From the NCBI RefSeq assembly GCF_058153355.1, contig NZ_CM177019.1: a stretch of 64,000 nt of DNA; one strand, given 5' to 3'. A program made the position numbers and the translations under genes. Under the pieces are notes generated by a model, which did not search any database, had not been told where the DNA came from, and saw nothing but the letters and a program-made list of their open reading frames with translations. Shown piece by piece: positions 2,604 through 29,781 of this stretch. Position 1 is the stretch's first letter, and every line of letters starts with the position of its first letter.

Positions 2604-2782
2604 TTACCAGGATGATTCTCAAAACAGCACAAATTATCAAAGATGATTTTTTCGGGAGCGATCCCGTTGACGCCAGAGCCACCAAGGGGTGACGCGCGTC
2701 ACATTTCTATTCATAAGTAGCGTTAATCATTCATATCACGAATATTTTCTTGTCAGCGAAAAAAATTGCGGATAAGGTGATG

Positions 2783-2870: not shown

Positions 2871-2882
2871 TTTATTGTGCAT

Positions 2883-3110
2883 TCAACGATTCACTTCAGA
2901 GACGCTGAAGTCATGAATATCCAGTTCGAAGGCATCCGCCAATTCACGCCATGTATGATATTCACGTCCATCGACACTAACGTGTTCAGGATCGTGCTGG
3001 CTGCGATGAACTTCGCTTTCGCTAATTTCATTGATCGCCGCCAGCAGGGCATCGACATCGACACTGACCTCACGTTTTGCGGTATCGCTGTACTCTTTTG
3101 CGGTTTTCAT
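2883..3110 (-). CDS. yodD: Small stress-induced protein YodD (75 aa from MKTAKEYSDTAK)
   Basis: ORF 2883..3125 with internal Met giving a 75-aa product; synteny. Confidence 0.7.
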   Translation of the reverse strand: MKTAKEYSDTAKREVSVDVDALLAAINEISESEVHRSQHDPEHVSVDGREYHTWRELADAFELDIHDFSVSEVNR

Positions 3111-3181
3111 CATATTTCCTCGCAACCGTTACTCTGTTGTTGCCGCCAGTCGTTAAGTCCGCTGGCATCTCTTAAGTATAG

Positions 3182-3460
<279 letters not shown>

Positions 3461-3503
3461 TCTAATTCAGCCTGACTGGTGGGAAACCACCAGTCAGAAT
3501 GTG

Positions 3504-4127
3504 TTAGCGCATGTTGACAAAAATACCATTAGTCACATTATCCGTCAGTCGGACGACATGGTAGATAACCTGTTTATTATGCGTTTTGATCTTTCGTTTA
3601 ATATTACCTTTATGCGATGAAACGGTCTTGGCTTTGATATTCATTTGGTCGGAGATTTGAATGGTTCCCTGACCTGCCATCCACATTCGCAACATACTCG
3701 ATTCGGTTCGGCTCAATGATAACGTCGGCATATTTAAAAACGAGGTTATCGTTGTCTCTTTTTTCAGAATATCGCCAAGGATATCGTCGAGAGATTCCGG
3801 TTTAATCGATTTAGAACTGATCAATAAATTTTTTCTGACCAACAGATATTCATCAAAATGAACATTGGCAATTGCCATAAAAACGATAAATAACGTATTG
3901 GGATGTTGATTAATGATGAGCTTGATACGCTGACTGTTAGAAGCATCGTGGATGAAACAGTCCTCATTAATAAACACCACTGAAGGGCGCTGTGAATCAC
4001 AAGCTATGGCAAGGTCATCAACGGTTTCAATGTCGTTGATTTCTCTTTTTTTAACCCCTCTGCTCAACAGATACCCGGTTAAACCTAGTCGGGTGTAACT
4101 ACATAAATCCATAATAATCGTTGACAT
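3504..4127 (-). CDS. rcsA: RcsA, LuxR-type auxiliary regulator of capsule synthesis
   Basis: 207-aa ORF; C-terminal LuxR-type HTH; length and position match RcsA. Confidence 0.9.
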
Positions 4128-4380
4128 GGCATACCCTCACTCAATGCGTAACGATAATTCCCCTTACCTGAATATTTCATCATGACTAAACGGAACAACA
4201 TGGGTCACCTAATGCGCCACTCTCGCGATTTTTCAGGCGGACTTACTATCCCGTAAAGTGTTGTATAATTTGCCTGGAATTGTCTTAAAGTAAAGTAAAT
4301 GTTGCGATATGTGAGTGAGGTTAAAACAAATATTTCGCCACAGGAGTATCCTGGAAGATGTTCGTGGGTATTATTTTTCA

Positions 4381-4391
4381 GATAATCCTTA
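4381..4391 (-). promoter_or_regulatory. Candidate RcsAB box upstream of rcsA
   Basis: Minus-strand sequence TAAGGATTATC resembles the RcsAB box consensus; position upstream of rcsA. Confidence 0.3.
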
Positions 4392-4416
4392 GGATAACAA
4401 GATAAACATTAGGGAA

Positions 4417-5202
4417 TCATATTACAGGTAATTCGCTGATAATATCTGCCAGCAAATTAAAAATTTCACTGAATAAATGTTCGCAAAAAGGAGCAATTAA
4501 CGGCATTAATGCCGCCATTAATGAGATACCGACAGTCAGAGTTAATGGAAATCCAATAACAAAAATGGATAATTGCGGGGCCATACGATTCAGTAAACCT
4601 AATGCCAGATTCAGTGTCAGCAGCAGAGTAATGAGCGGTAACGCCAGCATCAGTCCATTGAGGAAAATCATACTCCCTGCTTTGGTGAGTGCCAGAAACG
4701 CATTGCTATTCAACGGCTCGCCACCAATAGGCAGGGTGTGAAAGGTATCCACCAGCAGTGAAATCAGCCATAAATGACCGTTAAATGTCAGGAACAGCAG
4801 TAACGCCAGCATATCCATGATGCGCGCTAAAACGGGCATATTGAGATGGCTGCCCGGATCGACAAACGTTGCAAATGACAGTCCCATTTGCAGACCGATA
4901 ATTTCGCCAGCGGTTCGCACAGCGGCAAAAGCAAACTGCATGGTAAAACCAAGCGCAATGCCGATCAGGATCTGCTGCACGGCCAGCCACAGAGCAAAGA
5001 ACGAAAAAACAGGAACATCGTTGGCAGGTAATGATGGGGCAATGGCGAACGTGATCATCAATGCGATACCCAGTTTGACCCGTTTCGGCACGCTACGTTC
5101 GCTCAGAATTGGCGCGGTAGAAATGAGCGCCAGCACGCGCAGTAACGGCCAGAAGTACAGGCTCAACCAGGAAAGCCATTGATCGCTTGTCACCTGCAAC
5201 AT
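4417..5202 (-). CDS. fliR: Flagellar export apparatus protein FliR
   Basis: 261-aa polytopic membrane protein at the end of the fliL operon. Confidence 0.93.
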
Positions 5203-5210
5203 TATACGGG

Positions 5211-5480
5211 CTACCCGATGATATACGGCAGGTTAGTGAACAAGGTACGGACGTAATCCAGCAACAGATTGAGCATCCACGGTCCGGCAATAATAATGGC
5301 GATAAATACGGCGATGATTTTCGGAATAAACGACAGCGTCATTTCATTAATCTGCGTGGCGGCCTGCAAAATACTGATGATAAGGCCCGTGACCAACGCC
5401 ACCAGCAATAGCGGGGCAGCCAGTGCCAGCGCGACTTTCATCGCTTCAGTCCCCATCATCATGACCGATTCAGGTGTCAT
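5211..5480 (-). CDS. fliQ: Flagellar export apparatus protein FliQ
   Basis: 89-aa hydrophobic ORF; operon position. Confidence 0.93.
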
Positions 5481-5489
5481 TTTGCCTCT

Positions 5490-6227
5490 CTAGCTGTAAA
5501 AGCTCTGCGCCAGCGAACCGACCAGCAATTGCCAGCCATCCACCAGTACAAACAGCATCAGTTTAAAGGGCAGAGCAATGGTGGCCGGGGGCACCATCAT
5601 CATCCCCAATGCCATCAGTACGCTGGCAATCACCAGGTCGATAATCAAAAAAGGAATGAAAATCGTGAAGCCTATCTGAAATGCGGTTTTCAGCTCGCTG
5701 GTCACGTAGGCCGGGAGTAAAATGCGCATTGGCACGGCTTCAGGTCCCTGCAACGGGCCGGTATTCGCCAGTCTGGCAAACAACCCTAAATCTGCCTCGC
5801 GGGTCTGACGCAGCATAAACTCACGCAGCGGCTGCGCCCCTTTTTCCAGCGCCTCCTGCATTGAGATTTTCTCTTCGCTGAACGGCTGGTATGCATCGAC
5901 ATAAATTTTGTCGATCACCGGCGACATTATAAAAAAGGTCAAAAACAGTGCCAGCCCCAGCAATACCTGGTTGGGTGGTGCGGAGGGCGTGCCCAGCGCG
6001 TTTCGCAATAATCCAAAAACAATGATGATACGGGTGAAACTGGTCATCATCAGTAAAATCGCTGGAATAAACGTCAACGAGGTGATGAACACCAGCGTCT
6101 GCACCGGGAGGGACCAACTTTGTCCTCCGCCAGGCAGCGGCTGACTGGTGATACCCGGCAGTTGTGCGAAGGCGACGGGTGTAACCAGCCAGAGAAGAAC
6201 AGGTGCGACAGACAACAAACGACGCAT
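5490..6227 (-). CDS. fliP: Flagellar export apparatus protein FliP
   Basis: 245-aa ORF with signal peptide and conserved membrane segments. Confidence 0.93.
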
Positions 6228-6592
6228 CAGGATCTCCCGCTACGCTTAAGCAAGTTTTTCATGACCGACTGAAAATCGGTCTGTGGTATCTCTTCCGTTG
6301 GCGCAGAAGGGGGAAGTTTATGCAGCAGATTGATTTGCCCTGCGGTAACGCCGAGCACCAGCCGTGCATCTTCCACATCGACCACCACGACCCTTTCACG
6401 GGCGCCCAGCGAAGCACTGGCGCTAATTTTCAGACCGTTAACGCCAGTTCGTTTGGGGGCAAATCCCAGCCGTTTTACCAGCCAGGCAGCAGCGAGGATC
6501 AGGGCAATAATGGCGATCAGTGCGCCGCTCACCTGCAGCAGCGGTGCAGCAGAAACCGGCGCGGACGGTTGCACAGTAGCGTGGTTATTCAT
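6227..6592 (-). CDS. fliO: Flagellar protein FliO
   Basis: 121-aa ORF between fliN and fliP. Confidence 0.85.
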
Positions 6593-6594
6593 CG

Positions 6595-7008
6595 CTAACG
6601 GCTCAGGCGGCGCATTCGCTCAGACGGAGTAATGATATCGGTGATCCGCACGCCATATTTATCGGCAACGACCACCACTTCGCCCTGGGCGATTAAATAA
6701 CCGTTGATCAGAATATCCAGCGGTTCGCCTGCCAGGCCGTCCAGCGCTACGACTGACCCTTGTGTCAGGCGCAACAGCTCTTTGATGGTCATCCGCGTGC
6801 GGCCCAGTTCGACGGTCAGCTTAACCGGAATATCCATAATCAGGTCGATATCCTGCAACGTTCCGCTGACATCACCGCCGCCAAATTGCTGGAATACCGC
6901 GTCTGCAGCGCTTTTACTGCTGGTTGATTTTTGTTCGCTCAACGCTTCAGCCCACAGATCGTCCATTGCGCCGTTGTTATCATCGGCCGGATTATTCAAG
7001 TCACTCAT
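6595..7008 (-). CDS. fliN: Flagellar motor switch protein FliN
   Basis: 137-aa ORF; operon position. Confidence 0.93.
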   Translation of the reverse strand: MSDLNNPADDNNGAMDDLWAEALSEQKSTSSKSAADAVFQQFGGGDVSGTLQDIDLIMDIPVKLTVELGRTRMTIKELLRLTQGSVVALDGLAGEPLDILINGYLIAQGEVVVVADKYGVRITDIITPSERMRRLSR

Positions 7009-8009
7009 TTGGGCTGTTCCTCGTTCAGAGAATTCAAAATCGGGTTAATCAAATGTTCAATCCGTAACGCATACTGGCCGTTGAGGGTGCCGTACTGGCT
7101 GGTCAGCACCGGAACGCCGTCAACATGGGCGATGATGCGATCGGGTTTTTCTATCGGCAGGACGTCGCCGGGTTTCAGTTTTAAAATCTGCGACAGACGC
7201 AGCGATATATCGGCAAAGTTAGCGACCAGCTCCAGCTGTGAGTGCTGCACCTGACGCACCAGGTTATCGCGCCAGTTCTGATCTTCATTTCGTGAGTTTT
7301 CCAGCGGCGGGTTAACCAACAATTCCCGTAGCGGCTCGATCATGCTGAATGGCAGGCAGATATTAAATTCGCCGGTCAGGTTGCCAATCTCCACATGGAA
7401 CGGTGTGTTAACCACGATGTCGTTCGGCGAGGTGGTGATATTGGTAAATTTCACCTGCATTTCCGAACGCACGTACTCTACATCCAGCGGATTAATTGCC
7501 TTCCAGGCGTCGCTATAGCCTTCCAGCGCCAGCTTCAACATACGGTTGATGACGCGCTGTTCAGTATGGGTAAACTCGCGACCTTCCACTTTGGTTGGGA
7601 AGCGTCCATCGCCGCCAAACAGGTTATCCACGGCGATAAACACCAGACTCGGCGAGAACACCACCAGCCCTGTGCCGCGTAGCGGTTTCAGGTGGATTAG
7701 GTTCAGGTTGGTCGGCACCGGCAGGTTGCGGGCAAATTCATGGTACGGCTGAATGCGGATGGCCCCGACGGTAATGTCCGGGCTACGGCGCAATAGGTTG
7801 AACAGCCCCATACGGAAATGGCGGGCAAAACGCTCATTAATGATTTCCAGCGCCTGCAAACGTTCGCGTACAACCCGTCGTTGGGTATTCGGATCGTACG
7901 GACGAATGTCACTATCGCCGCTAACACTGGCCGTCGGTTCGTCTTTGACTTCGCTGTCACCATTCAACAGCGCATCAATTTCAGCTTGAGAAAGAATACT
8001 ATCGCCCAT
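7005..8009 (-). CDS. fliM: Flagellar motor switch protein FliM (334 aa from MGDSILSQAEIDALL)
   Basis: ORF 7005..8111 trimmed to the internal Met that gives the canonical 334-aa product. Confidence 0.92.
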   Translation of the reverse strand: MGDSILSQAEIDALLNGDSEVKDEPTASVSGDSDIRPYDPNTQRRVVRERLQALEIINERFARHFRMGLFNLLRRSPDITVGAIRIQPYHEFARNLPVPTNLNLIHLKPLRGTGLVVFSPSLVFIAVDNLFGGDGRFPTKVEGREFTHTEQRVINRMLKLALEGYSDAWKAINPLDVEYVRSEMQVKFTNITTSPNDIVVNTPFHVEIGNLTGEFNICLPFSMIEPLRELLVNPPLENSRNEDQNWRDNLVRQVQHSQLELVANFADISLRLSQILKLKPGDVLPIEKPDRIIAHVDGVPVLTSQYGTLNGQYALRIEHLINPILNSLNEEQPK

Positions 8010-8013
8010 GTCG

Positions 8014-8478
8014 TTATCGCAGAATAAAAGCGGTATACAGCACGTCGGTGACATCCTGTTTCGGTTGCCCGGCAACAAGCGGGGTGGAAAGTGTGGCTTT
8101 AATCTCAGCAATCAGGCTTTTCTTGCCTTCTTCTGTCGCCAGTACGGCAGCATCCTGACGCGAAAACAGTAACAGCAAGCGGCTACGGACTTCCGGCAAA
8201 TACTCACTTAGCCGCGAGCGGGTAGCTTCATCTTTTAGCCGCAGAGTTATGCCGATATAAAGCACGCGATCCGCATCACCCAAATTGACCGTAAAGGTAT
8301 CCAGCGCATAGAAGACCGGGGAGGGCACGACGCGTTGCTGCGCTTTGTCGTCAGCGGCAACCTGATGCGAATGCCAGTAGCTGTAACCTGCGCTGGCACA
8401 GGCCGCGAGGGTAATGAATACCAGAATCGGGATCCAAAGCGATCGCTTGCTTTTCTTGCTTATCGCGTAATCAGTCAT
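8014..8478 (-). CDS. fliL: Flagellar basal body-associated protein FliL
   Basis: 154-aa ORF, first gene of the fliLMNOPQR operon. Confidence 0.92.
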
Positions 8479-8582
8479 GTGTTGCGGTCTTCCTGTGTCG
8501 CTACTGCTTATCGGCTAATTATCCTGCGTCTTGAACGCAACAAAGCGGGGAAAAGACGCGGATTACGGTGCTACCTCTGACG

Positions 8583-9710
8583 TTAGGCGAAAATATCAAC
8601 GCCACTGTTGCCTGTTACGCGCCCTTGTAAAGAGACGGGAACGGGTAGCGCATCGTCGTCTTCACCCGCCAGAGGTTCATGATTTGCTGTGCGCTGGCTT
8701 TGCTGTTGCTGTGAAGCGGCCTGTTGCTGACCACTAAAGCTTTCGCCACTGATGTTGCTTTGCCCTAACTGAATGCCACTTTCTGCCAGCTGCGTACGCA
8801 GTACCGGTAGCGCAGCTTCCAGCGCGGCGCGTACGTGCTGATGCGGTGACACCATCTGGATTTGCGCCTGGCTATCATCCACTTTGAGGGAGATTTGTAC
8901 TTCACCTAAATCCTGCGGGTGCAGACGCAACTCTGCGCTTTGTTGCCCCTGGCGGGTAAACAGCGAAATATGCTGGCTTAATGATTGTTGCCATTCGTGA
9001 GAACCCAGCGGCGCACTCAAAACAGGTGCTGCGACGGTGGGCAGCGGCTGTGTCTGGTGCGGAGTGATGAGCGGGCTGACGGCAGCGGTCACCGGCGAAG
9101 GTGTGCTGATGACTTCCGCTTTACTCTGGGCTTCTGCTACCAGCGGTGTTACTGGCTGAGCTTGCGCGTCGGGGGCGTCATCAGGCTGTGCGGTTGTGAA
9201 TTGCGCAGTAGTCAGTTTTATGTAGAGAGTTGGTTTCTCTGTCGGTAACACGGTTGACGGCGCATCAGCCACTTTGGGCGTATTGTCAAAACCCGGCAAC
9301 ATCGCAAAAAGGGCGCTCAGGCTTGCGGTGACGTCTTCATTAAGCTCATCTGCTTTTTCGTCTTTTGTCGTATTTTTGTCAGCCACCGCAGCCAACGTCA
9401 TCGTCTGAGCGGTGGTTAACGGTGTTGATGTGGATTGTTCGTCGTTGATGACAGGCGGTATTTCATCCTCAGGGATCAGTAAATCCGCTTGTTGCACATC
9501 GGAAAGAATATCGCTAACCAGCGGCTCACCTTTTGTTATGGGTTTATCTGTTGCCACCAGCAACTGAGGGGCTGCTTTGTCGGTTGTTGTTTCACCTGCT
9601 ATTGCTCCACTCAACAATGCGAGAAAATCTTGTGCAGCATCGCTGGCTTTACCGCCGGGCAATATGGCGGTGTCAACGTCAGCGGTAATCACGGGCGCTA
9701 AGCGAATCAT
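8583..9710 (-). CDS. fliK: Flagellar hook-length control protein FliK
   Basis: 375-aa Pro/Gln/Ala-rich ORF; position. Confidence 0.92.
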
Positions 9711-10150
9711 TCGGGTTTCCTCATGGTGGCACGTTGGGCGAACTCATCCATCTTTTTCTGATCGAGACGGTTTTCTGCAAGCAGTGCCGCCGTGGATTGC
9801 CGTTCCTGCAGTGTCTGCCAGGCCTGCAAACGTTGTTTCTTTTCTCGCCAGCTGTTCAGGGCAATGTCAACTTTCTGCGTCCACTGATTAAGTTGCTGGC
9901 GATGCTGAGTAATGGCTTTTTCCAGCGTCTGGATAAACTGCTGATAGTTGATCCAGCGGTTACTGGTCATCCCGGCACTCATATCGCTGTTGAGGTTATT
10001 GCGATATTCATTCTGATAATCGATCAGCATTTTGAGTTGTTCCTCTGCCTGCTGGCATCCGCGACGCATTTCACCCAGCAGGCGCGCGGCATCTTCTACC
10101 TCTTTTTCTGCCAGATCTTTCAGGGTCGCCAGCGCGCCATGTTCTGCCAT
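9707..10150 (-). CDS. fliJ: Flagellar export chaperone-escort protein FliJ
   Basis: 147-aa coiled-coil ORF. Confidence 0.92.
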
Positions 10151-10171
10151 CTGCCGTTATCTCCTGCGTTT

Positions 10172-11541
10172 TCACACTGTCGGGAATATGCGCTCCAGCC
10201 CCTGGAGAGACTCTTCCCAGTCCGCGCGTTCAAAAATGCCTTGTTGCAAATAGCCCTCCAGCTGCGGCCACAGAGCGATGGCTTTATCGAGCATTGGATC
10301 GCTGCCTTTGGCATACGCGCCGACGCTAACCAGATCGCGGTTACGCTGAAAACTCGACAACAGCTGTTTGAAGGTGCGCACTCGCGCGTAATGTTGCTCG
10401 CTGATCAACGCCGTCATTGCACGGCTGATCGACGCTTCAATATCAATCGCCGGATAGTGTCCGGCTTCCGCCAGACGACGAGAAAGAACAATGTGACCGT
10501 CGAGGATCGCCCGTGCGGAGTCGGCAATCGGGTCCTGCTGGTCATCGCCTTCGGTGAGCACGGTATAAAACGCCGTAATTGAGCCGCCGCCGCTGATACC
10601 GTTACCGGCACGCTCGACCAGCGCCGGTAATTTGGCGAATACCGACGGTGGATAACCTTTGGTGGCAGGCGGTTCGCCAATCGCCAGCGCAATCTCACGC
10701 TGGGCCATCGCGTAGCGGGTGAGGGAGTCCATAATCAGCAACACATGCTGACCACGATCGCGAAAATCTTCGGCAATGCGCGTGGCATAGGCGGCACCTT
10801 GCATTCGCAGGAGCGGAGAAACATCCGCTGGAGCGGCAATCACCACGGAGCGTGCACGCCCTTCGGCACCGAGGATATTCTCAATAAAATCTTTTACTTC
10901 GCGCCCACGTTCACCAATCAAACCCACGACAATGACATCGGCGCGGGTGTAACGTGCCATCATCCCCAGCAGCACACTTTTACCGACACCAGAACCAGCA
11001 AATAGCCCCATACGCTGCCCGCGCCCAACGGTAAGCAGGGCATTGATTGGGCGCACGCCCGTGTCCAGCACATGTTCAATCGGTGTACGTTGCAAAGGGT
11101 TAAAAGGCGGGGTGATCAGCGCACCTGTTTCGGTCGTATCGGGGGAGGGAAGGCCATCAAGCGGTTTACCGCTGCCGTCCAGTACGCGACCTAACAACGC
11201 CGGACCGAGTGGCAACTGCTTGCCGCTTTGCAGCCCTTCAGCCGAAATGTGTTTGGCATAAACGCGCGCGCCGGGCAGGACACCTTCCACTTCTTCCAGC
11301 GGCATTAAAAACAGCCGTTGACCGTTAAAACCAACCACTTCGCTTTCTACTTCATGCGTTTCCGACCCGTTCTGGCGCTCAATCACACAGGTTGCGCCGA
11401 GCGGCAATTGTAATCCGGTAGCCTCCAGCACCAGCCCGGTGGCGCGGGTTAATCGCCCGTAGCGACGTACCGCAGGCAACTGCGCCATTTTGGCTTCGAA
11501 GTTATCCAGCGTGGTTAGCCAGCGAGTCAGGCGCGTGGTCA

Positions 11542-11542
<1 letters not shown>
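10172..11542 (-). CDS. fliI: Flagellum-specific ATPase FliI
   Basis: 456-aa ORF with Walker A GSGVGKS. Confidence 0.95.
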
Positions 11543-14867
<3,325 letters not shown>

Positions 14868-15081
14868 CGCGCACCTCGTGGCTGATTATGGACGGCGTTA
14901 TTGGCAAAGTGGAACAAGACTCACTCCCGGGTCAGCAAACTCGAAAAATTGACGCTCTCATTATTTGTGCTTTCGTTTTTTTCTATCCGCCAATAAACCC
15001 GTTTTTTTGTTGCTATTTAGCGCCTTTGTCTTATTGACTTACTGGTAGGCTTTGCTACCAGAAATTATCCGGGAGATGAAA

Positions 15082-15396
15082 ATGTCAGCGATACAGGGGA
15101 TTGAAGGGGTTATTAGCCAGTTACAGGCTACGGCGATGAGTGCGCGTGCGCAGGAATCACTGCCGCAACCGACCATTAGTTTTGCCGGGCAGCTGCACGC
15201 CGCGCTCGATCGCATAAGCGATACACAAACCGCCGCCCGCACGCAGGCAGAAAAATTCACCCTCGGCGAACCCGGCGTGGCGTTAAACGATGTGATGACC
15301 GATATGCAAAAAGCCTCAGTTTCTATGCAAATGGGGATTCAGGTGCGTAATAAGCTGGTGGCGGCGTATCAGGAAGTGATGAGCATGCAGGTGTAA
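15082..15396 (+). CDS. fliE: Flagellar hook-basal body protein FliE (104 aa from [10 protein letters not shown])
   Basis: ORF 15052..15396 trimmed to the canonical start; divergent from fliF. Confidence 0.9.
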
Positions 15397-15729
15397 GTTG
15401 TGTAACCTGTTGTTGATTACATCCGATCTCACCGCGTGGGGCATGGATGGGGCAAACACACTCAATTTCTGGTTTAAAATGGAAACCTGATTCTGAAAGT
15501 TTTCTGCCATCCACGATCTGTAAACGCGATAACATGTTTTGTCTTCGCTTTGCTCATAGGAAGAGTGAACTCTTTCGTTAGCCTGGGGTTCCTTCTGATC
15601 ATTATTGTTCCTGCCTTTATCTCTTGCCACGCCAGAGCCCCCTGGATACACATACACCAGGATGAAAACGGTGAGTTGTGTTCAAACTGTAGTACAATTC
15701 TCTCCAGTATGAACAGGAAAGAATATGCT

Positions 15730-16062
15730 ATGAACCCTTATATTTATCTTGGTGGCGCAATACTTGCAGAGGTCATTGGTACAACCTTAATGAAGTTTTC
15801 AGAGGGGGTTACACGGTTATGGCCCTCTGTTGGCACAATTATTTGTTATTGTGCCTCATTCTGGTTATTAGCTCAGACGCTGGCTTATATACCTACAGGG
15901 ATTGCTTATGCTATCTGGTCAGGAGTCGGTATCGTTCTGATTAGTTTGCTTTCCTGGGGATTTTTTGGCCAACGGCTGGACCTGCCAGCCATCATAGGCA
16001 TGATGTTGATTTGTGCCGGTGTGTTAGTCATTAACTTGTTGTCACGAAGTGCACCGCATTAA
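15730..16062 (+). CDS. emrE: Small multidrug resistance (SMR) efflux protein EmrE
   Basis: C-terminal 110 aa of ORF 15550..16062 (MNPYIYLGGAILAEVIGTTLMKFSEG...) match recalled EmrE, including the conserved Glu14. Confidence 0.9.
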   Translation: MNPYIYLGGAILAEVIGTTLMKFSEGVTRLWPSVGTIICYCASFWLLAQTLAYIPTGIAYAIWSGVGIVLISLLSWGFFGQRLDLPAIIGMMLICAGVLVINLLSRSAPH

Positions 16063-16230
16063 AAAATAATCATCCTTGAGATAACAAGAATCTGATTTGT
16101 GCATATTATGGCTAATGTTCGGGGCAACTTTATAATTATGATTGCATTTGCGCGATCATTGCGCCTTTTTGCATAATGAGATCAAGGCACATCAAATAAA
16201 ATAACGATAGGTCACAACAAAGAGGTTTTT

Positions 16231-16782
16231 ATGAAAAAACTTATCGTTTCAAGTGTATTGGCATTCATAACATTTTCTGCGCAGGCCGCAGCATTTCAGG
16301 TCACTAGTAATGAAATAAAAACAGGAGAGCAACTTACAACGTCTCATGTATTTTCTGGATTTGGGTGTGAGGGGGGGAATACATCGCCCTCATTAACCTG
16401 GTCTGGTGCTCCTGAAGGCACCAAAAGCTTTGCCGTAACTGTGTATGATCCAGATGCGCCTACAGGCAGTGGATGGTGGCACTGGACTGTTGCTAATATT
16501 CCAGCAACGGTAACATATTTGCCCGCTGATGCAGGAAGACGTGATGGTACAAAACTTCCGACTGGTGCTGTCCAAGGCCGAAATGATTTTGGCTATGCGG
16601 GATTTGGTGGAGCATGTCCTCCCAAAGGAGATAAACCCCATCATTACCAGTTTAAAATATGGGCTCTAAAAACTGATAAGATTCCTGTGGATTCTAATTC
16701 CAGCGGAGCGTTAGTTGGTTATATGCTTAATGCCAATAAAATTGCAACCGCTGAGATAACACCCGTTTATGAGGTAAAGTAG
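16231..16782 (+). CDS. ybcL: YbcL, periplasmic PEBP/RKIP-family (UPF0098) protein; DLP12-prophage-type cargo
   Basis: 183-aa ORF with signal peptide and PEBP motifs (DPDAP, GWWHW, GxHHY); follows emrE as in DLP12. Confidence 0.85.
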   Translation: MKKLIVSSVLAFITFSAQAAAFQVTSNEIKTGEQLTTSHVFSGFGCEGGNTSPSLTWSGAPEGTKSFAVTVYDPDAPTGSGWWHWTVANIPATVTYLPADAGRRDGTKLPTGAVQGRNDFGYAGFGGACPPKGDKPHHYQFKIWALKTDKIPVDSNSSGALVGYMLNANKIATAEITPVYEVK

Positions 16783-16791
16783 GATAAGAGT

Positions 16792-17589
16792 ATGCTGGCA
16801 AAAGATAGGACTAACCTAAAGATTGAAGAAATACGGATGCATAAACATCATGAGATTCACAGGGTTAAGCCTCTTATGCCAGCTTTATGTCGTATCCGTC
16901 AGGGAAAAAAAGTTATCAATTGGGAGACGCATAGTCTAACTGTTGATAATAATCAGATAATATTATTTCCCTGTGGATATGAATTTTATATTGCGAATTA
17001 CCCAGAAGCAGGTCTTTATCTTGCAGAAATGCTTTATTATCCCATTGATCTAATTGAAAAGTTCCAAAATCTTTATGCGATAACCGATCAAATTCGTAAC
17101 ACGACAGGTTTCTGCTTACCTCAGAATCCCGAGTTAATATATTGTTGGGAGCAACTAAAAACATCTGTTTCCCGAGGCTTCTCAACGCAAATTCAGGAAC
17201 ACTTAGCAATGGGCGTTCTACTTTCATTAGGAGCACATCATGTTAATTGTTTACTTTTATCAGATAGTAAACAATCATTAATAAGTCGTTGTTATAACCT
17301 AATGCTATCCGAACCTGGAACAAAATGGACAGCAAACAGGGTAGCGAGATATCTCTACATTTCTGTTTCCACATTGCATCGCCGTCTGGCAAGCGAGGGA
17401 GTAAGTTTTCAAAGTATATTGGACGACGTGAGGTTAAATAATGCGTTGTCTGCTATACAAACGACAGTAAAACCCATCAGCGAGATTGCCAGGGAAAATG
17501 GTTACAAGTGTCCTTCTCGTTTTACTGAAAGGTTCCATAATCGTTTTAAGATAACACCAAGAGAGCTAAGAAAAGCGTCCAGAGAGTAA
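16792..17589 (+). CDS. ybcM: AraC-family transcriptional regulator YbcM
   Basis: 265-aa ORF with C-terminal AraC-type HTH; order matches DLP12 ybcL-ybcM. Confidence 0.8.
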
Positions 17590-17598
17590 AAGTATTTT

Positions 17599-17718
17599 AT
17601 GAAGGAGCAACAGCATCGATTTTTATTTTGGAAAATCAATACGGCATACTCAACCTATTGGAGCCTGAACAATCCGGTGACTTCTGCGCTAATCGGGGAC
17701 GTTTATAAGCACATATAA
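17599..17718 (+). CDS. Candidate small ORF (39 aa, MKEQQHRFLFWKINTAYSTYWSLNNPVTSALIGDVYKHI), possibly ylcH-like
   Basis: Short ORF immediately after ybcM, where DLP12 carries ylcH; no convincing ribosome-binding site. Confidence 0.25.
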   Translation: MKEQQHRFLFWKINTAYSTYWSLNNPVTSALIGDVYKHI

Positions 17719-18042
17719 TTGATACTCTCTTCCTCCATCACAATTTCAGAAATGCACGTGTGATTTTTTGGCATCCGGCGTTTGGACTATGTGGAGTTCA
17801 AGAGTGGGAAAGTTACAAGAGGTTGAGGGGATAATTAAAGGGATGCTTATGACATTAGATATCCGGTTAGGTACGGATATCGTTGTTATTAAATCTAATT
17901 GATACGTTAATTGTTCACTGAGTATTATTAAAAATGGGGCGTTGAAACGCCCCAGAAAATAAAGGGTAATATATAACAGAAGGTTTATATAGTCAGAAGC
18001 AAGATAGCGCTTCTAAGGAAAGTGGCTTGAGGGGGCCACTTA

Positions 18043-18075
18043 TATGTTGGGGAGGCAAAGCCTCCCACAACATAT
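18043..18075 (-). terminator. Perfect inverted repeat (atgttggggaggc / gcctcccacaacat) just downstream of the porin gene
   Basis: 13-bp stem with 4-nt loop directly 3' of the porin stop at 18091. Confidence 0.6.
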
Positions 18076-18090
18076 CTTTGAGTAATCAGA

Positions 18091-19173
18091 TTAGAACTGG
18101 TAAACCAATCCTACAGCAACGATATCATCGGTAGCAACGCCAGATGCTTTCGTGAAATCGCTCTTATCAATCAGGTTGATTTTGTAATCAACAAAAGTGG
18201 ACATATTTTTGTTGAAGTAATAGGTTGCACCTACATCAATATATTCAACCAGGTCCTGATCACCCCACGCACCCAAGTCTTTTCCTTTAGATTGCAGGTA
18301 AGCAACGGACGGACGCAGACCGAAGTCGAACTGATATTGTGCAACTACTTCGAAGTTTTGTGCTTTGTTGGCAATATGGTTATTACCAAAAACAGTCATG
18401 TTCTGGGTTTCAGAATAGGTGGTAGCCAGATAGATGTTGTTCGCATCATATTTCAGACCAGCTGCCCATACTTCAGCATTTTGACCAGATGCATTCAGGC
18501 TGTTGTTACCGTAGATAACCTGATCATTAGTGCGGTCAGATTTAGCATAGGTTGCACCTACACCGAATCCTTCATACTCATAAGTAGTGGAGAAACCGAA
18601 ACCATCACCGTTAGCTTCAGTTACGTCAGTGCGGTCATTTTTACCCTGATACTGAGCAGCAAAGTTCAGACCATCAACCAGACCAAAGAAGTCGTTGTTA
18701 CGATAAGTTGCAACACCTGTGGTGCGACCAGTCATGAACACATCTGTTTGGGTCCAGGTATCGCCACCGAATTCTGGCAGAACGTCGGTCCATGCACCGA
18801 TATCGTATGCTACACCGTAGTTACGGCCATAATCGATGGAGCCGTAGTCACCGAATTTCAGGCCAGCGAAGGCAAGACGGGTTTTATCTTTGGAAGAACC
18901 TTGAGATTCAGCACGGTTGCCTTTGAATTCATATTCCCACTGACCGAAACCAGTCAGTTGATCGTTGATTTGGGTTTCGCCTTTGAAGCCCAGACGAACA
19001 TAAGTTGTGTCGCCATCATCTGCATCGTTAGAAGAGAAGTAGTGCTTAGCATTAACTTTTCCGTACAGATCCAGCTTGTTACTGTCTTTATTGTAAATCT
19101 CTGCTGCCTGAGCAGACATCGCCATCAGTACTGATGCAGCTACAGCAGAAATTGCCACTGTTAATTTTTTCAT
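18091..19173 (-). CDS. nmpC: Intact NmpC/OmpD-type general porin of the OmpC/OmpF family
   Basis: 360-aa ORF with signal peptide ([23 protein letters not shown]) and C-terminal ...VGLVYQF; closest to recalled NmpC; prophage-type cargo on the opposite strand to emrE-ybcM as in DLP12. Confidence 0.8.
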
Positions 19174-19703
19174 CGTGAGCCCTTTTATTTGAACTATTAT
19201 TTAAAAATGATGTCACTGCACCACAAATATTCATCTAATCAATGAGATTATTTCAAGATGTAAGTTTTAGTTTCTCATTTAAATTGTGAAGTAGATCCCT
19301 ATTTTTATCTGAACTGTTTCTATTGCACACAATGCATGACTATTTTGTGAACGAATATAAATTTGGTAGTCAAATTATATTAAAGGTTGTTATTTATGAT
19401 TGACTCATAATTTATTTATTTAATTTAAATAGCCTAAAAATAACCATGGAGATTATTTGCATGATATTTGTTTAGATTTGTTAATGTAGTTGAGGTGATT
19501 TTATTTAATACGCAATATAGCGCCGCTTGATATTAGTTCTATTTTTTTTTTGCGTAAGATAGATGAGACAAACTGAGACGCATAATGGTTTGCAAGGCTC
19601 TAATACTTTGATGTTGAGGATGTGATGGGGCATGTACGTGCATAGTACAATGATGTCCATGCCGGTGTGGATAATCTCCAGGCTTATCCGGTGCGCCGTA
19701 AAA

Positions 19704-20177
19704 CCCCGTCCTTCAGGGCGGGGATATAAGGCGCGGTTTTCCACCTGACCAGGTGTTTGCTGTTGTTCAATGTATTGGCGGATGACGGATATTGGCGCAC
19801 CTCCGCAGCTACTGGCAAAATAGCCGGGACTCCACAAAACGCCTTTGTAGTAATACCTGACTGCAATATCTGGTCGATCTCGTCGCAGTAATCTACCCGA
19901 TACGCCTTTGTGGCTGTTTACCAGACTGGATATCGCCAGTTTGGGAGGATAGTTAATTAACAAATGGACGTGATTCTGGTTCGCCATCCATTTCAACCAG
20001 TTCAGCTTCAAAATCAGCACATACATTTGAAAAGTAAGTGCGTAGTTTTTCTGTCGCGTCATGGTCAAAAATCTGACGTCGGTATCTGGTGACAAAGACC
20101 CGGTGAACATGCATCAGAAAAACACAGTGCCTTCCACGCCGGATATCGGTTTCTTTTTTCACAGACCAAAGTATCAT
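19704..20177 (-). pseudogene. tnpA: IS200/IS605 Y1 (HuH) transposase TnpA, split by a frameshift
   Basis: N-terminal part in ORF 19953..20177 (HCVFLMHVHRVFVTRYRRQIF...ELVEMDGEPE); HuH motif and catalytic-Tyr region in a different frame in ORF 19505..20110 (NHVHLLINYPP...SCGGAPISVIRQYIEQQQ); frame switch near 19965..19985. Confidence 0.7.
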
Positions 20178-20184
20178 TTGGCCT

Positions 20185-21393
20185 GTGAAACGACTACAAG
20201 CATTTAAATTCCAGTTAAGACCAGGTGGTCAACAGGAGCGTGAAATGAGGCGCTTCGCAGGCGCATGTCGTTTCGTTTTCAATCGTGCTCTGGCACGTCA
20301 GAATGAGAATCATGAGGCCGGTAATAAATACATCCCTTACGGGAAAATGGCTTCCTGGCTGGTTGAGTGGAAAAATGCCACTGAAACGCAATGGCTTAAA
20401 GATTCGCCCTCACAGCCATTGCAACAGTCACTGAAAGACCTTGAGCGGGCTTACAAAAACTTCTTCCAGAAGCGGGCTGCTTTTCCCCGATTCAAAAAGC
20501 GGGGACAGAATGATGCATTCCGCTACCCGCAGGGCGTTAAGCTCGATCAGGAAAACAGCCGTATTTTTCTGCCGAAACTGGGCTGGATGCGCTACCGGAA
20601 CAGCCGTCAGGTCACGGGTGTTGTGAAAAATGTCACGGTCAGCCAGTCCTGCGGTAAGTGGTACATCAGTATTCAGACAGAAAGTGAAGTATCCACTCCG
20701 GTTCATCCTTCAGCATCAATGGTCGGGCTGGATGCTGGCGTGGCTAAACTCGCCACGCTGTCAGATGGCACAGTCTTTGAGCCTGTAAACAGTTTTCAGA
20801 AAAACCAGAAGACGCTGGCGAGACTTCAGCGACAGTTAAGCCGCAAGGTCAAATTCAGCAACAACTGGCAGAAGCAGAAACGCAAAATACAGCGACTGCA
20901 TTCCCGTATCGCAAATATCCGCAGGGACTACCTTCACAAAGTCACAACGACCGTCAGCAAAAACCACGCAATGATAGTCATTGAGGATTTGAAGGTCAGC
21001 AACATGTCAAAGTCAGCAGCGGGTACGGTCAGCCAGCCGGGGCGCAATGTCCGGGCAAAATCAGGTTTAAACCGTTCGATACTGGATCAGGGCTGGTATG
21101 AAATGCGCCGCCAGCTTGAGCACAAGCAGCTCTGGAGTGGCGGTCAGGTGCTTGCTGTTCCGCCAGCGTACACAAGCCAGCGTTGCGCGTGCTGTGGTCA
21201 TACAGCGAAAGAAAACCGCCTGTCACAAAGTAAATTCAGATGCCAGGTATGTGGATATACAGCGAACGCCGATGTAAATGGCGCTCGTAACATTTTAGCG
21301 GCGGGGCACGCCGTTCTTGCCTGTGGAGAGATGGTGCAGTCAGGCCGCCCGTTGAAGCAGGAACCCACCGAAATGATTCAGGCGACAGCCTGA
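20185..21393 (+). CDS. tnpB: TnpB (IS605 OrfB), RuvC-like RNA-guided endonuclease; intact; GTG start
   Basis: 402-aa ORF; N-terminus resembles TnpB; C-terminal zinc finger CxxC...CxxC ([37 protein letters not shown]) and RuvC-like segments. Confidence 0.85.
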
Positions 21394-21432
21394 ACGTAGC
21401 AGGGATCCACGTCCTTCAGGGCGTGGAGGATG

Positions 21433-22105
21433 TCAACAAACAGGTTGAATTAACTTCGCGCCCTGGTTTTTGACATTACCCACCGCGCGCGACACAGGGT
21501 GCCAGGTGAACTGGTTTGCTGGAACACAGCCACTGGCAGAAATTTCAGAGGCTTCTTTACCGCTAATCTCTTGCCGCATCCATTCCCGCGCAGCTTCTGG
21601 CGACAGTACCAGCGGGCGGCGGTCATGAATATCTACCAGACCCTGGTCTGCTGCTGCAGTGACAATTAAAAATCCTTCGGCTTCGTCACCACGCTCAAAC
21701 GGTGTGCTACCTATCGCGGCTATAAAAACAGGTTGTCCATCAGCGCGATAGATAAAATAAGGCTGTTTTTTTGTCGCCTTCTTTTTTCCACTCAAACCAG
21801 CCATCGGCAAAACAGATTGCCCGACCATGTTGCCAGAGCGGTTTAAACATACGACTGGTTGCCGCAGTTTCTACGCGGGCGTTAATCAGCGGCGGTTTAT
21901 CCCACCATCCGGGAGCATATCCCCAGAAAACCGGATCCAGATGAAGGTGTTCATCACGTTCACTGAGCAGAAGAACTTTGGTTCCCGGCGCGACGTTGTA
22001 TCTGCCAATGGGTTCGGGATCGTAGGGAATATCGCGTTCAATATCTTCCGCGAGAAGCGCAAGGTAATCTTCACGCGTTTGGGATTGGGCAAAGCGTCCA
22101 CACAT
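21433..22105 (-). pseudogene. yedK: YedK (SRAP/HMCES-family abasic-site processing protein) disrupted by a +1 frameshift in a homopolymer run
   Basis: N-terminal 121-aa ORF (MCGRFAQSQ..., catalytic Cys2) and C-terminal 131-aa ORF overlap in different frames; 7-nt T run at 21766..21772 where the intact reading requires 6. Confidence 0.8.
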
Positions 22106-22213
22106 AGCAACCTCCTGAGATCATACTGAAAAGAATAGGAGAGGGGGCGGGTAAAATCTATGTGATGCAGAGGTAACGATGTTCCCGCTGTTGGCCACAG
22201 CGGGAATGAGGGA

Positions 22214-22447
22214 TTACTTCTGAATTAAATAACGAATGGTCGGCCCGTCTTGCTGAATATCCAGCACCGTATAGCCGTGATTACGCGCATCCAGTGGAAT
22301 ATTATTGATCGACTGCGGACAGTCGCTCACCACTTCCAGGATCTCACCTTTTTTTAATTGCGGCATCGCCTCAAGGGTTGCGACTGCCGGATAAGGGCAG
22401 GGTTCACCCACCATATCAAGGCGGTAATCAGGAACGATATTTTTCAT
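22214..22447 (-). CDS. yedF: TusA-like sulfurtransferase-family protein YedF
   Basis: 77-aa ORF with CPxP motif (EPCPYP). Confidence 0.88.
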   Translation of the reverse strand: MKNIVPDYRLDMVGEPCPYPAVATLEAMPQLKKGEILEVVSDCPQSINNIPLDARNHGYTVLDIQQDGPTIRYLIQK

Positions 22448-28299: not shown

Positions 28300-29781
28300 A
28301 TGGCACAAGTCATTAATACCAACAGCCTCTCGCTGATCACTCAGAACAACATCAACAAAAACCAGTCTGCGCTGTCGACGTCTATCGAGCGTCTGTCTTC
28401 CGGTCTGCGTATCAACAGCGCAAAGGATGATGCAGCGGGCCAGGCCATTGCTAACCGTTTCACCTCTAACATTAAAGGCCTGACTCAGGCTGCACGTAAC
28501 GCCAACGACGGTATTTCTCTGGCGCAGACTACTGAAGGCGCGCTGTCTGAGATTAACAACAACTTGCAGCGTGTGCGTGAGTTGACTGTACAGGCGACGA
28601 CCGGGACTAACTCTGAATCTGACCTGTCTTCTATCCAGGATGAAATCAAATCCCGTTTAAGCGAAATTGACCGTGTTTCTGGTCAGACTCAGTTTAACGG
28701 CGTGAACGTACTGGCTAAGAATGACACCCTGTCTATTCAGGTAGGTGCAAATGACGGTCAGACTATCAATATTGACCTGCAGCAGATCGATTCTCATACA
28801 CTGGGTCTGGATGGTTTCAGCGTTAAAAACAATGATGCAGTGAAAACCAGTGCTGCGGTGAATACTCTTGGGGGTGGGGCAAGTTCTGTTGCTGTCGACT
28901 TCGCAACAACCAATTTGACTGCTATCGCTGGTCTCGGTGGCGGTGCTATCAGCGAAATTGCTAAAGACGATAATGGTGATTACTACGCGCATGTTACAGG
29001 GACTACGGGTAGTACTGCTGATGGTTACTATGCTGTCGATATTGACAAGGCTAACGGTAAGGTCGCTCTGAAAGATGGTAACGTAGATACACCGACAGGT
29101 ACGCCAACGACGACAAGCACATATGACTTCACAGACGCTGGTCAAACCGTTTCCTTTGGCACTGATGCTGCAACAGCAGGTATCAGCACTGGCGCTTCTC
29201 TCGTCAAACTTCAGGATGAGAAAGGCAATGATACTGCTACTTATGCAATCAAAGCACAAGATGGCAGCCTGTATGCCGCCAACGTTGATGAGACTACCGG
29301 TAAAGTCACTGTCAAAACCGCCAGCTATACCGATGCTGACGGCAAAGCAGTGACCGATGCCGCTGTAAAACTGGGTGGCGACAATGGCAAAACCGAAATT
29401 GTTGTCGATGCTGCGTCAGGTAAAACTTACGATGCTGGTGCACTGCAAAACGCTGATCTCTCCAGTGCAACCAACACGGTAACCGCAATCCCGAACGGTA
29501 AAACCACGTCTCCTCTGGCTGCCCTTGACGACGCAATCAGCCAGATCGACAAATTCCGCTCCTCCCTCGGTGCGGTACAAAACCGTTTGGATTCCGCCGT
29601 CACCAACCTGAACAACACCACTACCAACCTGTCTGAAGCGCAGTCCCGTATTCAGGACGCCGACTATGCGACCGAAGTGTCCAACATGTCGAAAGCGCAG
29701 ATTATCCAGCAGGCCGGTAACTCCGTGCTGGCAAAAGCCAACCAGGTACCGCAGCAGGTTCTGTCTCTGCTGCAGGGTTAA
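28300..29781 (+). CDS. fliC: Flagellin FliC (493 aa from MAQVINTNSL); conserved termini with a variable central H-antigen domain
   Basis: ORF trimmed to the canonical start; N- and C-terminal regions match recalled flagellin, central region diverges from K-12. Confidence 0.93.
   Translation: MAQVINTNSLSLITQNNINKNQSALSTSIERLSSGLRINSAKDDAAGQAIANRFTSNIKGLTQAARNANDGISLAQTTEGALSEINNNLQRVRELTVQATTGTNSESDLSSIQDEIKSRLSEIDRVSGQTQFNGVNVLAKNDTLSIQVGANDGQTINIDLQQIDSHTLGLDGFSVKNNDAVKTSAAVNTLGGGASSVAVDFATTNLTAIAGLGGGAISEIAKDDNGDYYAHVTGTTGSTADGYYAVDIDKANGKVALKDGNVDTPTGTPTTTSTYDFTDAGQTVSFGTDAATAGISTGASLVKLQDEKGNDTATYAIKAQDGSLYAANVDETTGKVTVKTASYTDADGKAVTDAAVKLGGDNGKTEIVVDAASGKTYDAGALQNADLSSATNTVTAIPNGKTTSPLAALDDAISQIDKFRSSLGAVQNRLDSAVTNLNNTTTNLSEAQSRIQDADYATEVSNMSKAQIIQQAGNSVLAKANQVPQQVLSLLQG

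Follow-up and report, generated by a model that had tools for sequence, protein, structure and literature searches.

A probable lambdoid prophage remnant with DLP12-like cargo between fliE and yedK in Escherichia coli

Introduction

In the Escherichia coli chromosome studied here (a window of 64,000 nucleotides from contig NZ_CM177019.1, assembly GCF_058153355.1), the interval between the flagellar gene fliE and yedK holds genes that K-12 lacks at this locus, raising the question of what this DNA is and how it arrived there. An initial annotation had read it as a decayed prophage remnant. Our literature search returned nothing on the fliE-yedK locus. We conclude, with a probability of roughly 0.85, that what lies here is left over from a temperate lambda-like phage that integrated at fliE with an IntG-type integrase, and that an IS609-like element hit it later. 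Defective lambdoid prophage remnants of this kind are well known and ordinary in E. coli.

Gene content and boundaries of the island

The annotated emrE, ybcL, ybcM, intact porin and IS200/IS605 element were all found in place (Table 1), and K-12 does differ between fliE and yedK, its MG1655 order being fliE-intG'-yedN'-yedL-yedK. Homology between the window and K-12 ended at 15533 and picked up again at 21437, so that allele-specific DNA begins at 15533/15534 rather than at 15397. G+C content was 37-46% in the island and 50-56% in its flanks. EmrE, of the SMR efflux pump family, shared 97.3% amino acid identity with K-12 EmrE, scored above its NCBIfam cutoff and retained the essential Glu14, as read off the translation. 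The porin matched NF007841 over residues 8-360 (520.8 bits against a cutoff of 484) and possessed a signal peptide and a C-terminal Phe, the protein ending ...VGLVYQF. Its 3' flank contained a strong intrinsic-terminator-like hairpin at 17954-17935 on the minus strand in a terminator scan, and an Rfam scan of 14.5-23 kb (E <= 1) found no known sRNA family in that flank. A promoter scan was uninformative, returning fewer sigma-70-like sites than in shuffled sequence. Beyond the DLP12-like part of the porin upstream region, some 160 bp of spacer (19512 to ~19674) had no match among the sequences compared, and the ~14 bp immediately left of the IS (about 19675-19688) are common to K-12, where they lie just after the yedK stop codon.

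Repeats were sought across 15300-22300; no long direct ones flank the island, and the IS hairpins formed the sole meaningful pair. A tRNA scan found none near the island, which leaves the site without a tRNA link. No repressor, excisionase, replication, lysis, head or tail genes were present among the open reading frames. With no structural, lysis or replication gene left, a phage origin therefore rests on collinearity with known phages and on traces of an integrase and its attachment site.

Table 1. Coordinates of features at the fliE-yedK locus (positions in the window).
Feature	Position	Strand	Details
fliE	15082-15396	+	
attL core	15377..15396	+	last 20 nt of fliE (TGATGAGCATGCAGGTGTAA); ~20-21 bp; copy in live-phage attP
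Tyrosine integrase 3'-terminal fragment, IntG type	15415..15549	-	found by tblastn
Internal fragment of same integrase	15528..15637	-	76% nt identity to IdasGreatGrand int 36120-36235
DLP12-like block 1	15654..16064	+	last 9 bp of ren, emrE upstream region, emrE
emrE	15730-16062	+	NF042984, 234.7 bits (cutoff 226)
DLP12-like block 2	16076..17796	+	ybcL, ybcM, 5' part of ylcH (about 17706-17796)
ybcL	16231-16782	+	NF007330, 400.8 (cutoff 277); periplasmic PEBP/Raf-kinase-inhibitor-like protein
ybcM	16792-17589	+	AraC-type HTH regulator; 91.7% aa identity to K-12 YbcM
quuD 3' stub and porin 3' flank	17806..18090	-	quuD (antiterminator gene) stub 17806-17904, + sense
NmpC/Lc/OmpD-type general porin	18091-19173	-	360 aa, intact; NF007841
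AT-rich porin upstream region	19174..19688	-	DLP12-like up to 19511
IS200/IS605-family (IS609-like) element	19689..21437	+	1,749 bp
tnpA	19689-20177	-	frameshifted near 19975
IS left-end hairpin	19704-19724		
tnpB	20185-21393	+	intact, 402 aa; NF040570, 383 bits, full length
IS right-end hairpin	21407-21427		
yedK (SRAP/HMCES-family protein)	21433..22105	-	frameshifted; two half-length ORFs
Candidate attR relic	22160..22176	+	degenerate copy of fliE 3' end (ATGTGATGCAGAGGTAA)

Collinearity with DLP12 and live lambdoid phages

The prophage-remnant reading was borne out by comparison with DLP12, the cryptic lambdoid prophage of K-12, and with live phages. The cargo aligned to DLP12 in four collinear blocks at 85-93% nucleotide identity (92.7% for block 1, 89.6% for block 2 against DLP12 6739-8459, and 87% for the region 17806..18090 against DLP12 10242-10571), with clean deletion junctions of 9-16 bp. 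Relative to DLP12, ylcJ-ybcK and the ylcH(3')-quuD(5') block were absent. The annotation's view that gene content, order and porin orientation mirror DLP12, with ybcK and the ylcH-quuD block missing, is thus upheld. DLP12 and the live lambdoid phages PhiR34_1, PhiR68_2 and PhiR70_1 share emrE, ybcL, ybcM, ylcH', quuD' and an nmpC-type porin with the window in the same order and orientation; in these elements the porin gene, on the opposite strand, is flanked by Q and the lysis genes. The full order in the three phages is ren-emrE-ylcJ-ybcK-ybcL-ybcM-nin-Q-porin-S-R-Rz. All three covered window positions 15654-19511 at about 91% identity, and PhiR34_1 covered 90% of 15397-19688 at 91%.

Integrase fragments and the attachment site

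The initial annotation had stated that no integrase or recognizable att repeats remain, which we revise on both counts: two integrase fragments, together about 240 bp, lie beside fliE, and the attL core is identifiable through live-phage attP and a complete prophage at the site. No intact integrase is present. The 3'-terminal fragment extends from the stretch aligned to the C-terminal ...VYRVYGSWM... motif through the C-terminus, and by tblastn shared 35 of 45 residues (E = 7e-17) with a 194-aa integrase fragment from Escherichia sp. E1V33; in two other island-bearing genomes (L007 and L008), PGAP calls this stub an 'integrase' pseudogene. Inside it, a motif at 15438-15457 (GGGGCATGGATGGGGCAAAC) resembles an Int arm-type binding site. 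The internal fragment included an 18-aa integrase match in a second frame, and ~344 bp of int are deleted between the two pieces. These remains adjoin fliE with the int 3' end toward it, as in an attL-int arrangement.

The nearest full-length relatives of the fragments were lambdoid phage integrases. The closest belonged to the lambda-like phage IdasGreatGrand (96.6% amino acid identity to the longer E1V33 fragment), whose attP region bears the fliE end and matched window positions 15377-15532 at 85%, fliE end included. Complete prophages occupy the site in a few E. coli. In one of them, strain UTAK-1, the prophage is 38.7 kb long and separates fliE from the old int stub; comparison of its attL, attR and attP supported the attL core. 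A full-length integrase gene of the IntG type abutted fliE in six E. coli genomes. The 3' end of fliE is a long-used phage attachment site that is still active.

The new prophage beside an old stub in UTAK-1 demonstrates re-use of the site, so the stub and the cargo might stem from two events, an older element leaving the stub and a later DLP12-like phage at the same att recombining with it or deleting into it. The int 3' stub is indeed common to K-12-type alleles, where the cryptic prophage PR-G (intG') occupies the same site with a stub of about 97% nucleotide identity up to 15533 and shares the right flank starting at the yedK stop codon, and the stub occurs at 84-89% identity in E. albertii and cryptic-clade genomes that have no cargo. 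PR-G differs from the window in carrying yedM/yedN' (an LRR effector-like pseudogene) and yedL in place of emrE-ybcL-ybcM-porin, and in having no IS and no internal int fragment. This extra fragment in the island counts against two events, as it runs straight into the ren/emrE junction, just as a single int-to-ren deletion within one prophage would leave it; we consider separate origins the less likely of two scenarios that are hard to tell apart on these data.

The right-hand end and yedK

No second copy of the fliE end was found with a 17-mer search allowing up to 4 substitutions, and the candidate attR emerged only via gapped alignment. We regard it as a putative relic supported mainly by its position, its sequence by itself being statistically weak (local alignment against random window segments, p about 0.008-0.06 depending on scoring). 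It is followed by a hairpin at 22182-22206 that in Citrobacter braakii stands directly after the fliE stop codon, and synteny with other Escherichia species picks up again at 22183.

The candidate thus lies beyond yedK, which is itself broken in this genome: compared with three intact alleles, a homopolymer run in it (T7 on the plus strand, 21766-21772) is one base longer. Other Escherichia species, Citrobacter and Salmonella have no yedK at this locus. Gifsy-2 of Salmonella, whose integrase is of the same family as the window stub (about 69% amino acid identity), and Escherichia phage PHB10, with an integrase of just 47.5% identity, each have a homologue of yedK (82-84% amino acid identity) on the non-int side of attP, in the same position and orientation relative to int as in the window. 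The right end of Gifsy-2 also contains a 21-bp exact match to the arm-site-like motif in the window's int stub. Unlike the remnant, both are complete, as phages or prophages, use other att sites and bring cargo of their own, which in the examined part of Gifsy-2 is sseI. With yedK homologues present next to attP in lambdoid phages, and with the candidate attR on the far side of yedK, the gene itself is probably old phage cargo. More tentatively, and at somewhat less than even odds, the whole fliE-yedF interval may go back to a single Gifsy-2/lambda-like prophage that integrated in the last ~21 bp of fliE, the emrE-ybcL-ybcM-porin and K-12 yedM-yedN-yedL cassettes being alternative deletion products, the site still a live attB, and yedK domesticated phage cargo beside the old attR. 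If so, a 'core' DNA-repair gene, the bacterial HMCES/SRAP model, would be phage-derived.

The IS609-like element

The IS insertion is a later event, separate from the prophage. Its ends were set by comparison with L002, an island copy that lacks the IS and so provides a precise empty site: the element sits 3' of TTATC inside the yedK stop codon, made no target duplication and added one Cys codon to the yedK 3' end. The same termini with a TTATC left flank recurred at three other unrelated loci, making four independent loci in all at which TTATC directly precedes the left end. The element has subterminal hairpins and no terminal inverted repeats. Matches of tnpA to NF033573 (Y1/HUH) were split over two frames (79 and 48.5 bits); with tnpA decayed, this copy is therefore non-autonomous and cannot move by itself. 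The tnpB reading frame is intact, and TnpB may still be active. The only hits of the Rfam scan of 14.5-23 kb were three sub-threshold ones over the tnpB 3' end, including HgcC (21.9 bits) and RAGATH-18 (25.4 bits). Divergent tnpA and tnpB, subterminal hairpins without inverted repeats, and insertion 3' of a fixed pentanucleotide without target duplication are all shared with IS609/IS605-group elements that have TnpB (InsQ), and E. coli copies named IS609 family by PGAP were 97.7-98.4% identical in nucleotides to the window IS. Apart from the frameshifted tnpA, nothing about this copy is unusual for the group.

Distribution in E. coli and related species

We evaluated the fliE-emrE junction in 5,426 complete E. 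coli genomes. It occurred in 2,619, making it the commonest single haplotype family, though the exact form seen in the window (porin and IS) was rare. K-12-type genomes, with 1,530 full junctions and about 1,200-1,300 partial ones (truncated derivatives), constituted roughly the other half. Identity across the fliE-emrE junction ranged from 94.5% to 99.6%, a spread that suggests long residence. The island is one of two haplotype families that split E. coli roughly in half, and it looks like an old resident of the site, not a recent acquisition. A 'near-empty' allele (L009) was considered as a true empty site and rejected, being a deletion derivative of the K-12 type.

Such prevalence and long residence could also be expected if the arrangement were ancestral core DNA of E. 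coli with K-12 as the exception. This we consider very unlikely: the K-12-type and truncated junctions account for the other half of the species, none of the cargo was found at the loci of other Escherichia species, Citrobacter or Salmonella (in Citrobacter species, fliE and yedF are about 50-200 bp apart with nothing between them), G+C is 37-46%, and live phage DNA matches the cargo at 91% identity. The description of the DNA as an accessory island is thus correct in that the arrangement is neither universal nor ancestral, but not in any implication of rarity, since some form of it is present in about half of sequenced E. coli. Nor is it the only clearly strain-variable DNA in the window, as had been claimed: the centre of fliC (about 28.85-29.5 kb) did not align to K-12, and the K-12 IS1H near flhDC is absent from the window at about 52.6 kb.

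Probable origin and decay of the remnant

The window remnant lacks lysis and structural genes altogether, and its porin is intact where nmpC of the K-12 DLP12 is disrupted by IS5. DLP12 integrates at the tRNA-Arg gene argU, as opposed to the fliE 3' end, and its IntD shares only about 27% amino acid identity with the integrase type of the window (IntG/Gifsy-2-like). Because the integrase types differ, the remnant is not a copy of DLP12 itself. A recent duplication of a resident DLP12 segment into the fliE locus would account for the shared gene content and order, and both copies are present in many genomes, but it is highly improbable given identities of merely 85-93%, the different type of integrase adjoining the cargo, and a porin allele that matches PhiR34_1 (99.2% amino acid identity) rather than K-12 nmpC. 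The porin was also 100% identical in amino acids to that of the IS-free island. Nucleotide identity within the porin gene reached 100% across 18204-18600. Despite an intact attL core and the use that live phages make of the site, there is practically no chance that this is a still-functional, inducible prophage or satellite, with only two integrase fragments, a degenerate attR relic and no excisionase, repressor, replication, lysis or structural genes.

Under the preferred reading of a decayed lambda-like phage, a phage with an IntG-type tyrosine integrase would have integrated into the last ~21 bp of fliE, bringing its own copy of these bases so that fliE stayed intact. Large deletions would then have removed, in an order that we can only infer, the 5' half of int through ren (and with it the genes for recombination, immunity and replication), the ylcH-to-quuD stretch of nin genes, and everything from the lysis genes through the tail fibres. 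The survivors would be genes that did not serve phage growth, whose products, where tested, act on the host cell envelope, among them EmrE as a proton-coupled SMR efflux pump. We postulate that the cargo is expressed, with the porin, in its usual Q-to-lysis position, transcribed on the opposite strand from an AT-rich promoter of its own. Unable to excise or replicate, the remnant passes down vertically like any other chromosomal DNA. An IS609-like element later entered 3' of TTATC in the yedK stop codon; its tnpA has decayed since then, while tnpB is intact.

Significance

The finding has little importance beyond annotation, where it helps to read strain differences at this locus and to name the integrase stub correctly. 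Through the island the strain has a second complement of envelope-related genes: an efflux pump, a regulator, a periplasmic protein of the PEBP family and one more porin. This additional porin could alter permeability as well as sensitivity to phages or colicins. A single-residue variant of YbcL, present in most uropathogenic strains, is reported to suppress neutrophil migration (review, PMC4810123). The evolutionary point is a modest one: one decay product occupies this site in about half of E. coli, and the other in about half.

A prophage remnant between fliE and yedK

The island between fliE and yedK was supported as a prophage remnant, the interpretation already offered by the initial annotation. 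ORF listing and NCBIfam scans recovered every gene which that annotation had named (emrE, ybcL, ybcM, a porin gene and an IS element), and G+C content was 37-46% over 15.5-20 kb, compared to 50-56% in the flanks. BLAST against the K-12 region of the cryptic lambdoid prophage DLP12 returned four collinear blocks, and three live lambdoid phages (PhiR34_1, R68_2 and R70_1) covered 15654-19511 at ~91%; the likeness to DLP12 proposed for this DNA was therefore correct at the DNA level. Relative to DLP12, the island lacked ylcJ-ybcK (2.1 kb), the stretch from the 3' part of ylcH through the 5' part of quuD (1.8 kb) and IS5. The gene order of PhiR34_1 was int...O-P-ren-emrE-ylcJ-ybcK-ybcL-ybcM-ybcN-ninE-ybcO-rusA-ylcG-Q-porin(-)-S-R-Rz, and its porin shared 99.2% protein identity with that of the window, with 100% DNA identity over 18204-18600. 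The middle of the porin gene (18204-18800) was 98-100% identical to PhiR34_1 in DNA and the flanking cargo only 80-94%, a mosaic pattern which suggests that lambdoid phages have swapped the porin allele.

Features of the fliE-yedK interval and blocks shared with DLP12
Feature	Coordinates	Strand	Evidence
fliE	15082-15396	+	ORF list
Integrase stub, first piece	15549-15415	-	tblastn, 35/45 residues identical, E = 7e-17
Integrase stub, second piece, different frame	15581-15528		tblastn
emrE	15730-16062	+	NCBIfam 234.7 bits, cutoff 226
ybcL	16231-16782	+	NCBIfam 400.8 bits, cutoff 277
ybcM	16792-17589	+	AraC-type HTH; no equivalog-level NCBIfam match
Porin gene, 360 aa	18091-19173	-	OmpC-subfamily model 520.8, cutoff 484
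tnpA, IS200-type, two out-of-frame pieces	19689-20177	-	ORF list, NCBIfam
tnpB, intact, 402 aa	20185-21393	+	ORF list, NCBIfam
IS subterminal hairpins	19704-19724; 21407-21427
yedK, two ORFs	21433-21828; 21740-22105
Candidate attR	22160-22176
DLP12 block: last 9 bp of renD, emrE	15654-16064		92.7% nt identity
DLP12 block: ybcL, ybcM, ylcH 5' part	16076-17796		89.6% nt identity
DLP12 block: quuD 3' 99 bp, nmpC 3' end	17806-18132		87.3% nt identity
DLP12 block: nmpC and upstream region	18149-19511		85.4% nt identity

Residue 99 of the YbcL precursor (codon 16525-16527), which would correspond to about mature residue 78 with a 21-aa signal peptide, was Ala in the window, Val in K-12 DLP12 and Thr in L002, an E. 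coli genome with an IS-free island. The activity of YbcL reportedly depends on position 78, with Thr active and Val inactive. Suppression of neutrophil migration by YbcL is determined by one residue (reviewed in PMC4810123). A strong terminator-like hairpin (17935-17954, minus strand; 8 bp stem with six GC pairs, followed by a T run) was located ~140 nt past the porin stop codon, in DNA homologous to the nmpC-quuD spacer of DLP12. No family was matched at this hairpin in an Rfam search. The porin-regulating sRNA IpeX presumably maps to the same spacer in DLP12.

In K-12 MG1655, the locus reads fliE-intG'-yedN'-yedL-yedK and is annotated as cryptic prophage PR-G; alignment of the window to K-12 ended at 15533 and restarted at 21437. 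The claim that no other DNA of the window was clearly strain-variable proved wrong: the central part of fliC (about 28854-29497) did not align to K-12, reflecting H-antigen variation, and the K-12 IS1H upstream of flhDC was missing at about 52604-52611. Identity to K-12 was only 95.8% on the fli operon side (1-15533), compared to ~97.3% for 29497-64000.

Integrase relic and attachment site at fliE

Contrary to the original view that neither an integrase nor att sequences remained, both integrase fragments and an attP-matching fliE end were present. A 194-aa ORF adjoining fliE in Escherichia sp. E1V33 clearly corresponded to the C-terminal half of a tyrosine integrase, and as a tblastn query it identified two pieces of an integrase stub beside fliE in the window. 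PGAP labels this stub as an 'integrase' pseudogene in both island-bearing and K-12-type genomes. The full-length integrase nearest to the E1V33 fragment was that of the lambda-like phage IdasGreatGrand (96.6% aa), followed by those of Fels-1, Gifsy-2, phiP27 and Stx phages at 60-80%. The int 3' end and attP of IdasGreatGrand matched 15377-15532 at 85% DNA identity, including the last 20 nt of fliE, and an internal int piece matched 15528-15637 at 76%. The phage thus brings its own copy of this end, and integration within fliE restores the reading frame.

Full-length integrases of the IdasGreatGrand type abutted fliE in six E. coli genomes, and E. coli UTAK-1 carried a complete 38.7-kb prophage between fliE and the old stub. 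The fliE site therefore still serves as a live attB, and the stub was left behind by an earlier occupant. Comparison of the UTAK-1 attL and attR with the phage attP placed the crossover in ...TGATG[TCC/AGC]ATGCAGGTGTA.... The UTAK-1 prophage (L097 825-39500) was P22-like, encoding int, xis, ERF, N, a cI-like repressor, Q, two tRNAs, lysis genes, a P22-type capsid and a tailspike; past it lay the old integrase stub, an intact LRR effector-like gene and yedK. Within the stub of the window, the motif GGGGCATGGATGGGGCAAAC (15438-15457) had a 21-bp exact match near the Gifsy-2 right end (L098 124-144), and GCCCC-rich repeats of a similar kind flanked attP in IdasGreatGrand and PHB10; both look like arm-type binding sites of the integrase.

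An IS609-like element and the forms of the island

The alignment of L002 to the window broke off after 19688 and picked up at 21437, which gave an exact empty site (...GGCTTATC^AAACAGG..., the caret marking the junction), and the IS was therefore delimited to 19689-21437 (1,749 bp). Its termini, CGGTGCGCC...GGATGTCAA[C/T], recurred at three unrelated loci (yjfZ-ytfB, ydcL-ydcO and near yidH), with TTATC directly 5' of the left end at every locus inspected, and comparison with the L002 empty site revealed no target duplication. Close relatives are named as IS609 family by PGAP. Insertion split the yedK stop codon (T^GA) and added one Cys codon, which accounts for the annotated yedK length of 672 bp in IS-bearing genomes. 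The tnpA gene was frameshifted near 19975, and the TnpB protein was identical to that of strain 2017.17.01CC. In five other IS609-like copies (L013, L014, L015, L005 and L007), tnpA was always annotated as frameshifted, truncated or with an internal stop; tnpB was intact in three (L013, L015 and L005) and had an internal stop in two (L014 and L007), in line with the general pattern that intact tnpB genes outnumber intact tnpA genes. At the IS right end, Rfam returned sub-threshold matches only, to HgcC and RAGATH-18. TnpB elements are reportedly characterised in Karvelis 2021, Altae-Tran 2021 and Meers 2023. On what is established for such elements, the guide in the right-end RNA would match AAACAGGTTGAATTAA..., with TTATC as target-adjacent motif. 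The predicted target would be TTATC+AAACAGGTTGAATTAAC, and a nuclease of this kind would cut an allele that lacks the IS.

We evaluated the frequency of the island in 5,426 complete E. coli genomes using a 501-bp fliE-emrE junction query at coverage of at least 80%. The junction was found in 2,619 genomes at 94.5-99.6% identity, and the description of the island as accessory needs qualifying accordingly. The K-12-type junction was fully covered in 1,530 genomes, and about 1,200-1,300 more were estimated, from evenly spaced rows, to hold K-type alleles in truncated form, among them int'-yedL-yedK (L008) and a near-empty form (L009). Among island-bearing genomes, estimates from spread listings gave about 1,000 that retained the IS and had lost the porin via a deletion of 17901-19132 (L007 type), about 1,000 in which the porin and most of the IS were gone and yedK had lost a part (L004 type), and about 400 that kept the porin without the IS (L002 type). 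An intact porin with a complete IS, as in the window, was found in only one of the genomes listed, strain 2017.17.01CC, which carries an extra IS1, so this form is rare. One and the same IS insertion is partly preserved in both the L007 and the L004 type, so both types likely descend from a window-like arrangement.

The right-hand end and the origin of yedK

A FliE query against the GTDB species representatives gave 80 loci. Convergent fliE and yedF genes lay only about 50-200 bp apart in several Citrobacter species. The gap held other genes in E. whittamii, E1V33, E. albertii and two 'E. coli'-labelled genomes, and emrE, ybcL, ybcM, the porin gene and yedK were all absent from it in these five; the integrase stub was shared in part by all of them except E. 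whittamii. The two records titled 'Escherichia coli', L020 (NZ_JAATUR010000007.1) and L023 (CP089930.1), shared only 84-88% identity with the window near fliE, lacked yedK at this locus and probably represent cryptic clades of Escherichia, not true E. coli. Similarity to the window resumed beyond yedK, at 22183 in four of the five Escherichia genomes and at about 22178 in E. albertii. Directly left of 22183 lies ATGTGATGCAGAGGTAA, which resembles a degenerate fliE 3' end (a weak match, p = 0.06, 0.019, 0.008 or 0.046 across the queries and scoring schemes used) and is followed by a hairpin at 22182-22206; in C. braakii, the hairpin is directly 3' of the fliE stop codon. We regard this sequence as a candidate attR, mainly on account of its position.

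The two yedK ORFs of the window result from a homopolymer at 21766-21772 (T7 on the plus strand, six T in three other alleles), and the split reflects either a genuine pseudogene or an error in sequencing the run; yedK was also frameshifted in L008. Homologues of yedK in lambdoid phages adjoined attP on the non-int arm: in PHB10 (84% aa) the order was int-attP-SRAP, oriented as in the window, in Gifsy-2 (82% aa) about 1.8 kb separated the gene from the right end of the prophage, and in a Klebsiella phage it lay at the record end. This is the geometry of yedK relative to the integrase stub in the window, and we think there is a good chance that E. coli acquired yedK through the fliE site. Remnants of this kind are well known, the K-12 counterpart is already named and thousands of genomes carry the island. 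Only two points are mildly new, the serial use of the fliE 3' end as an attB and the probable origin of yedK as phage cargo; a search of the available literature collection found no paper on either.
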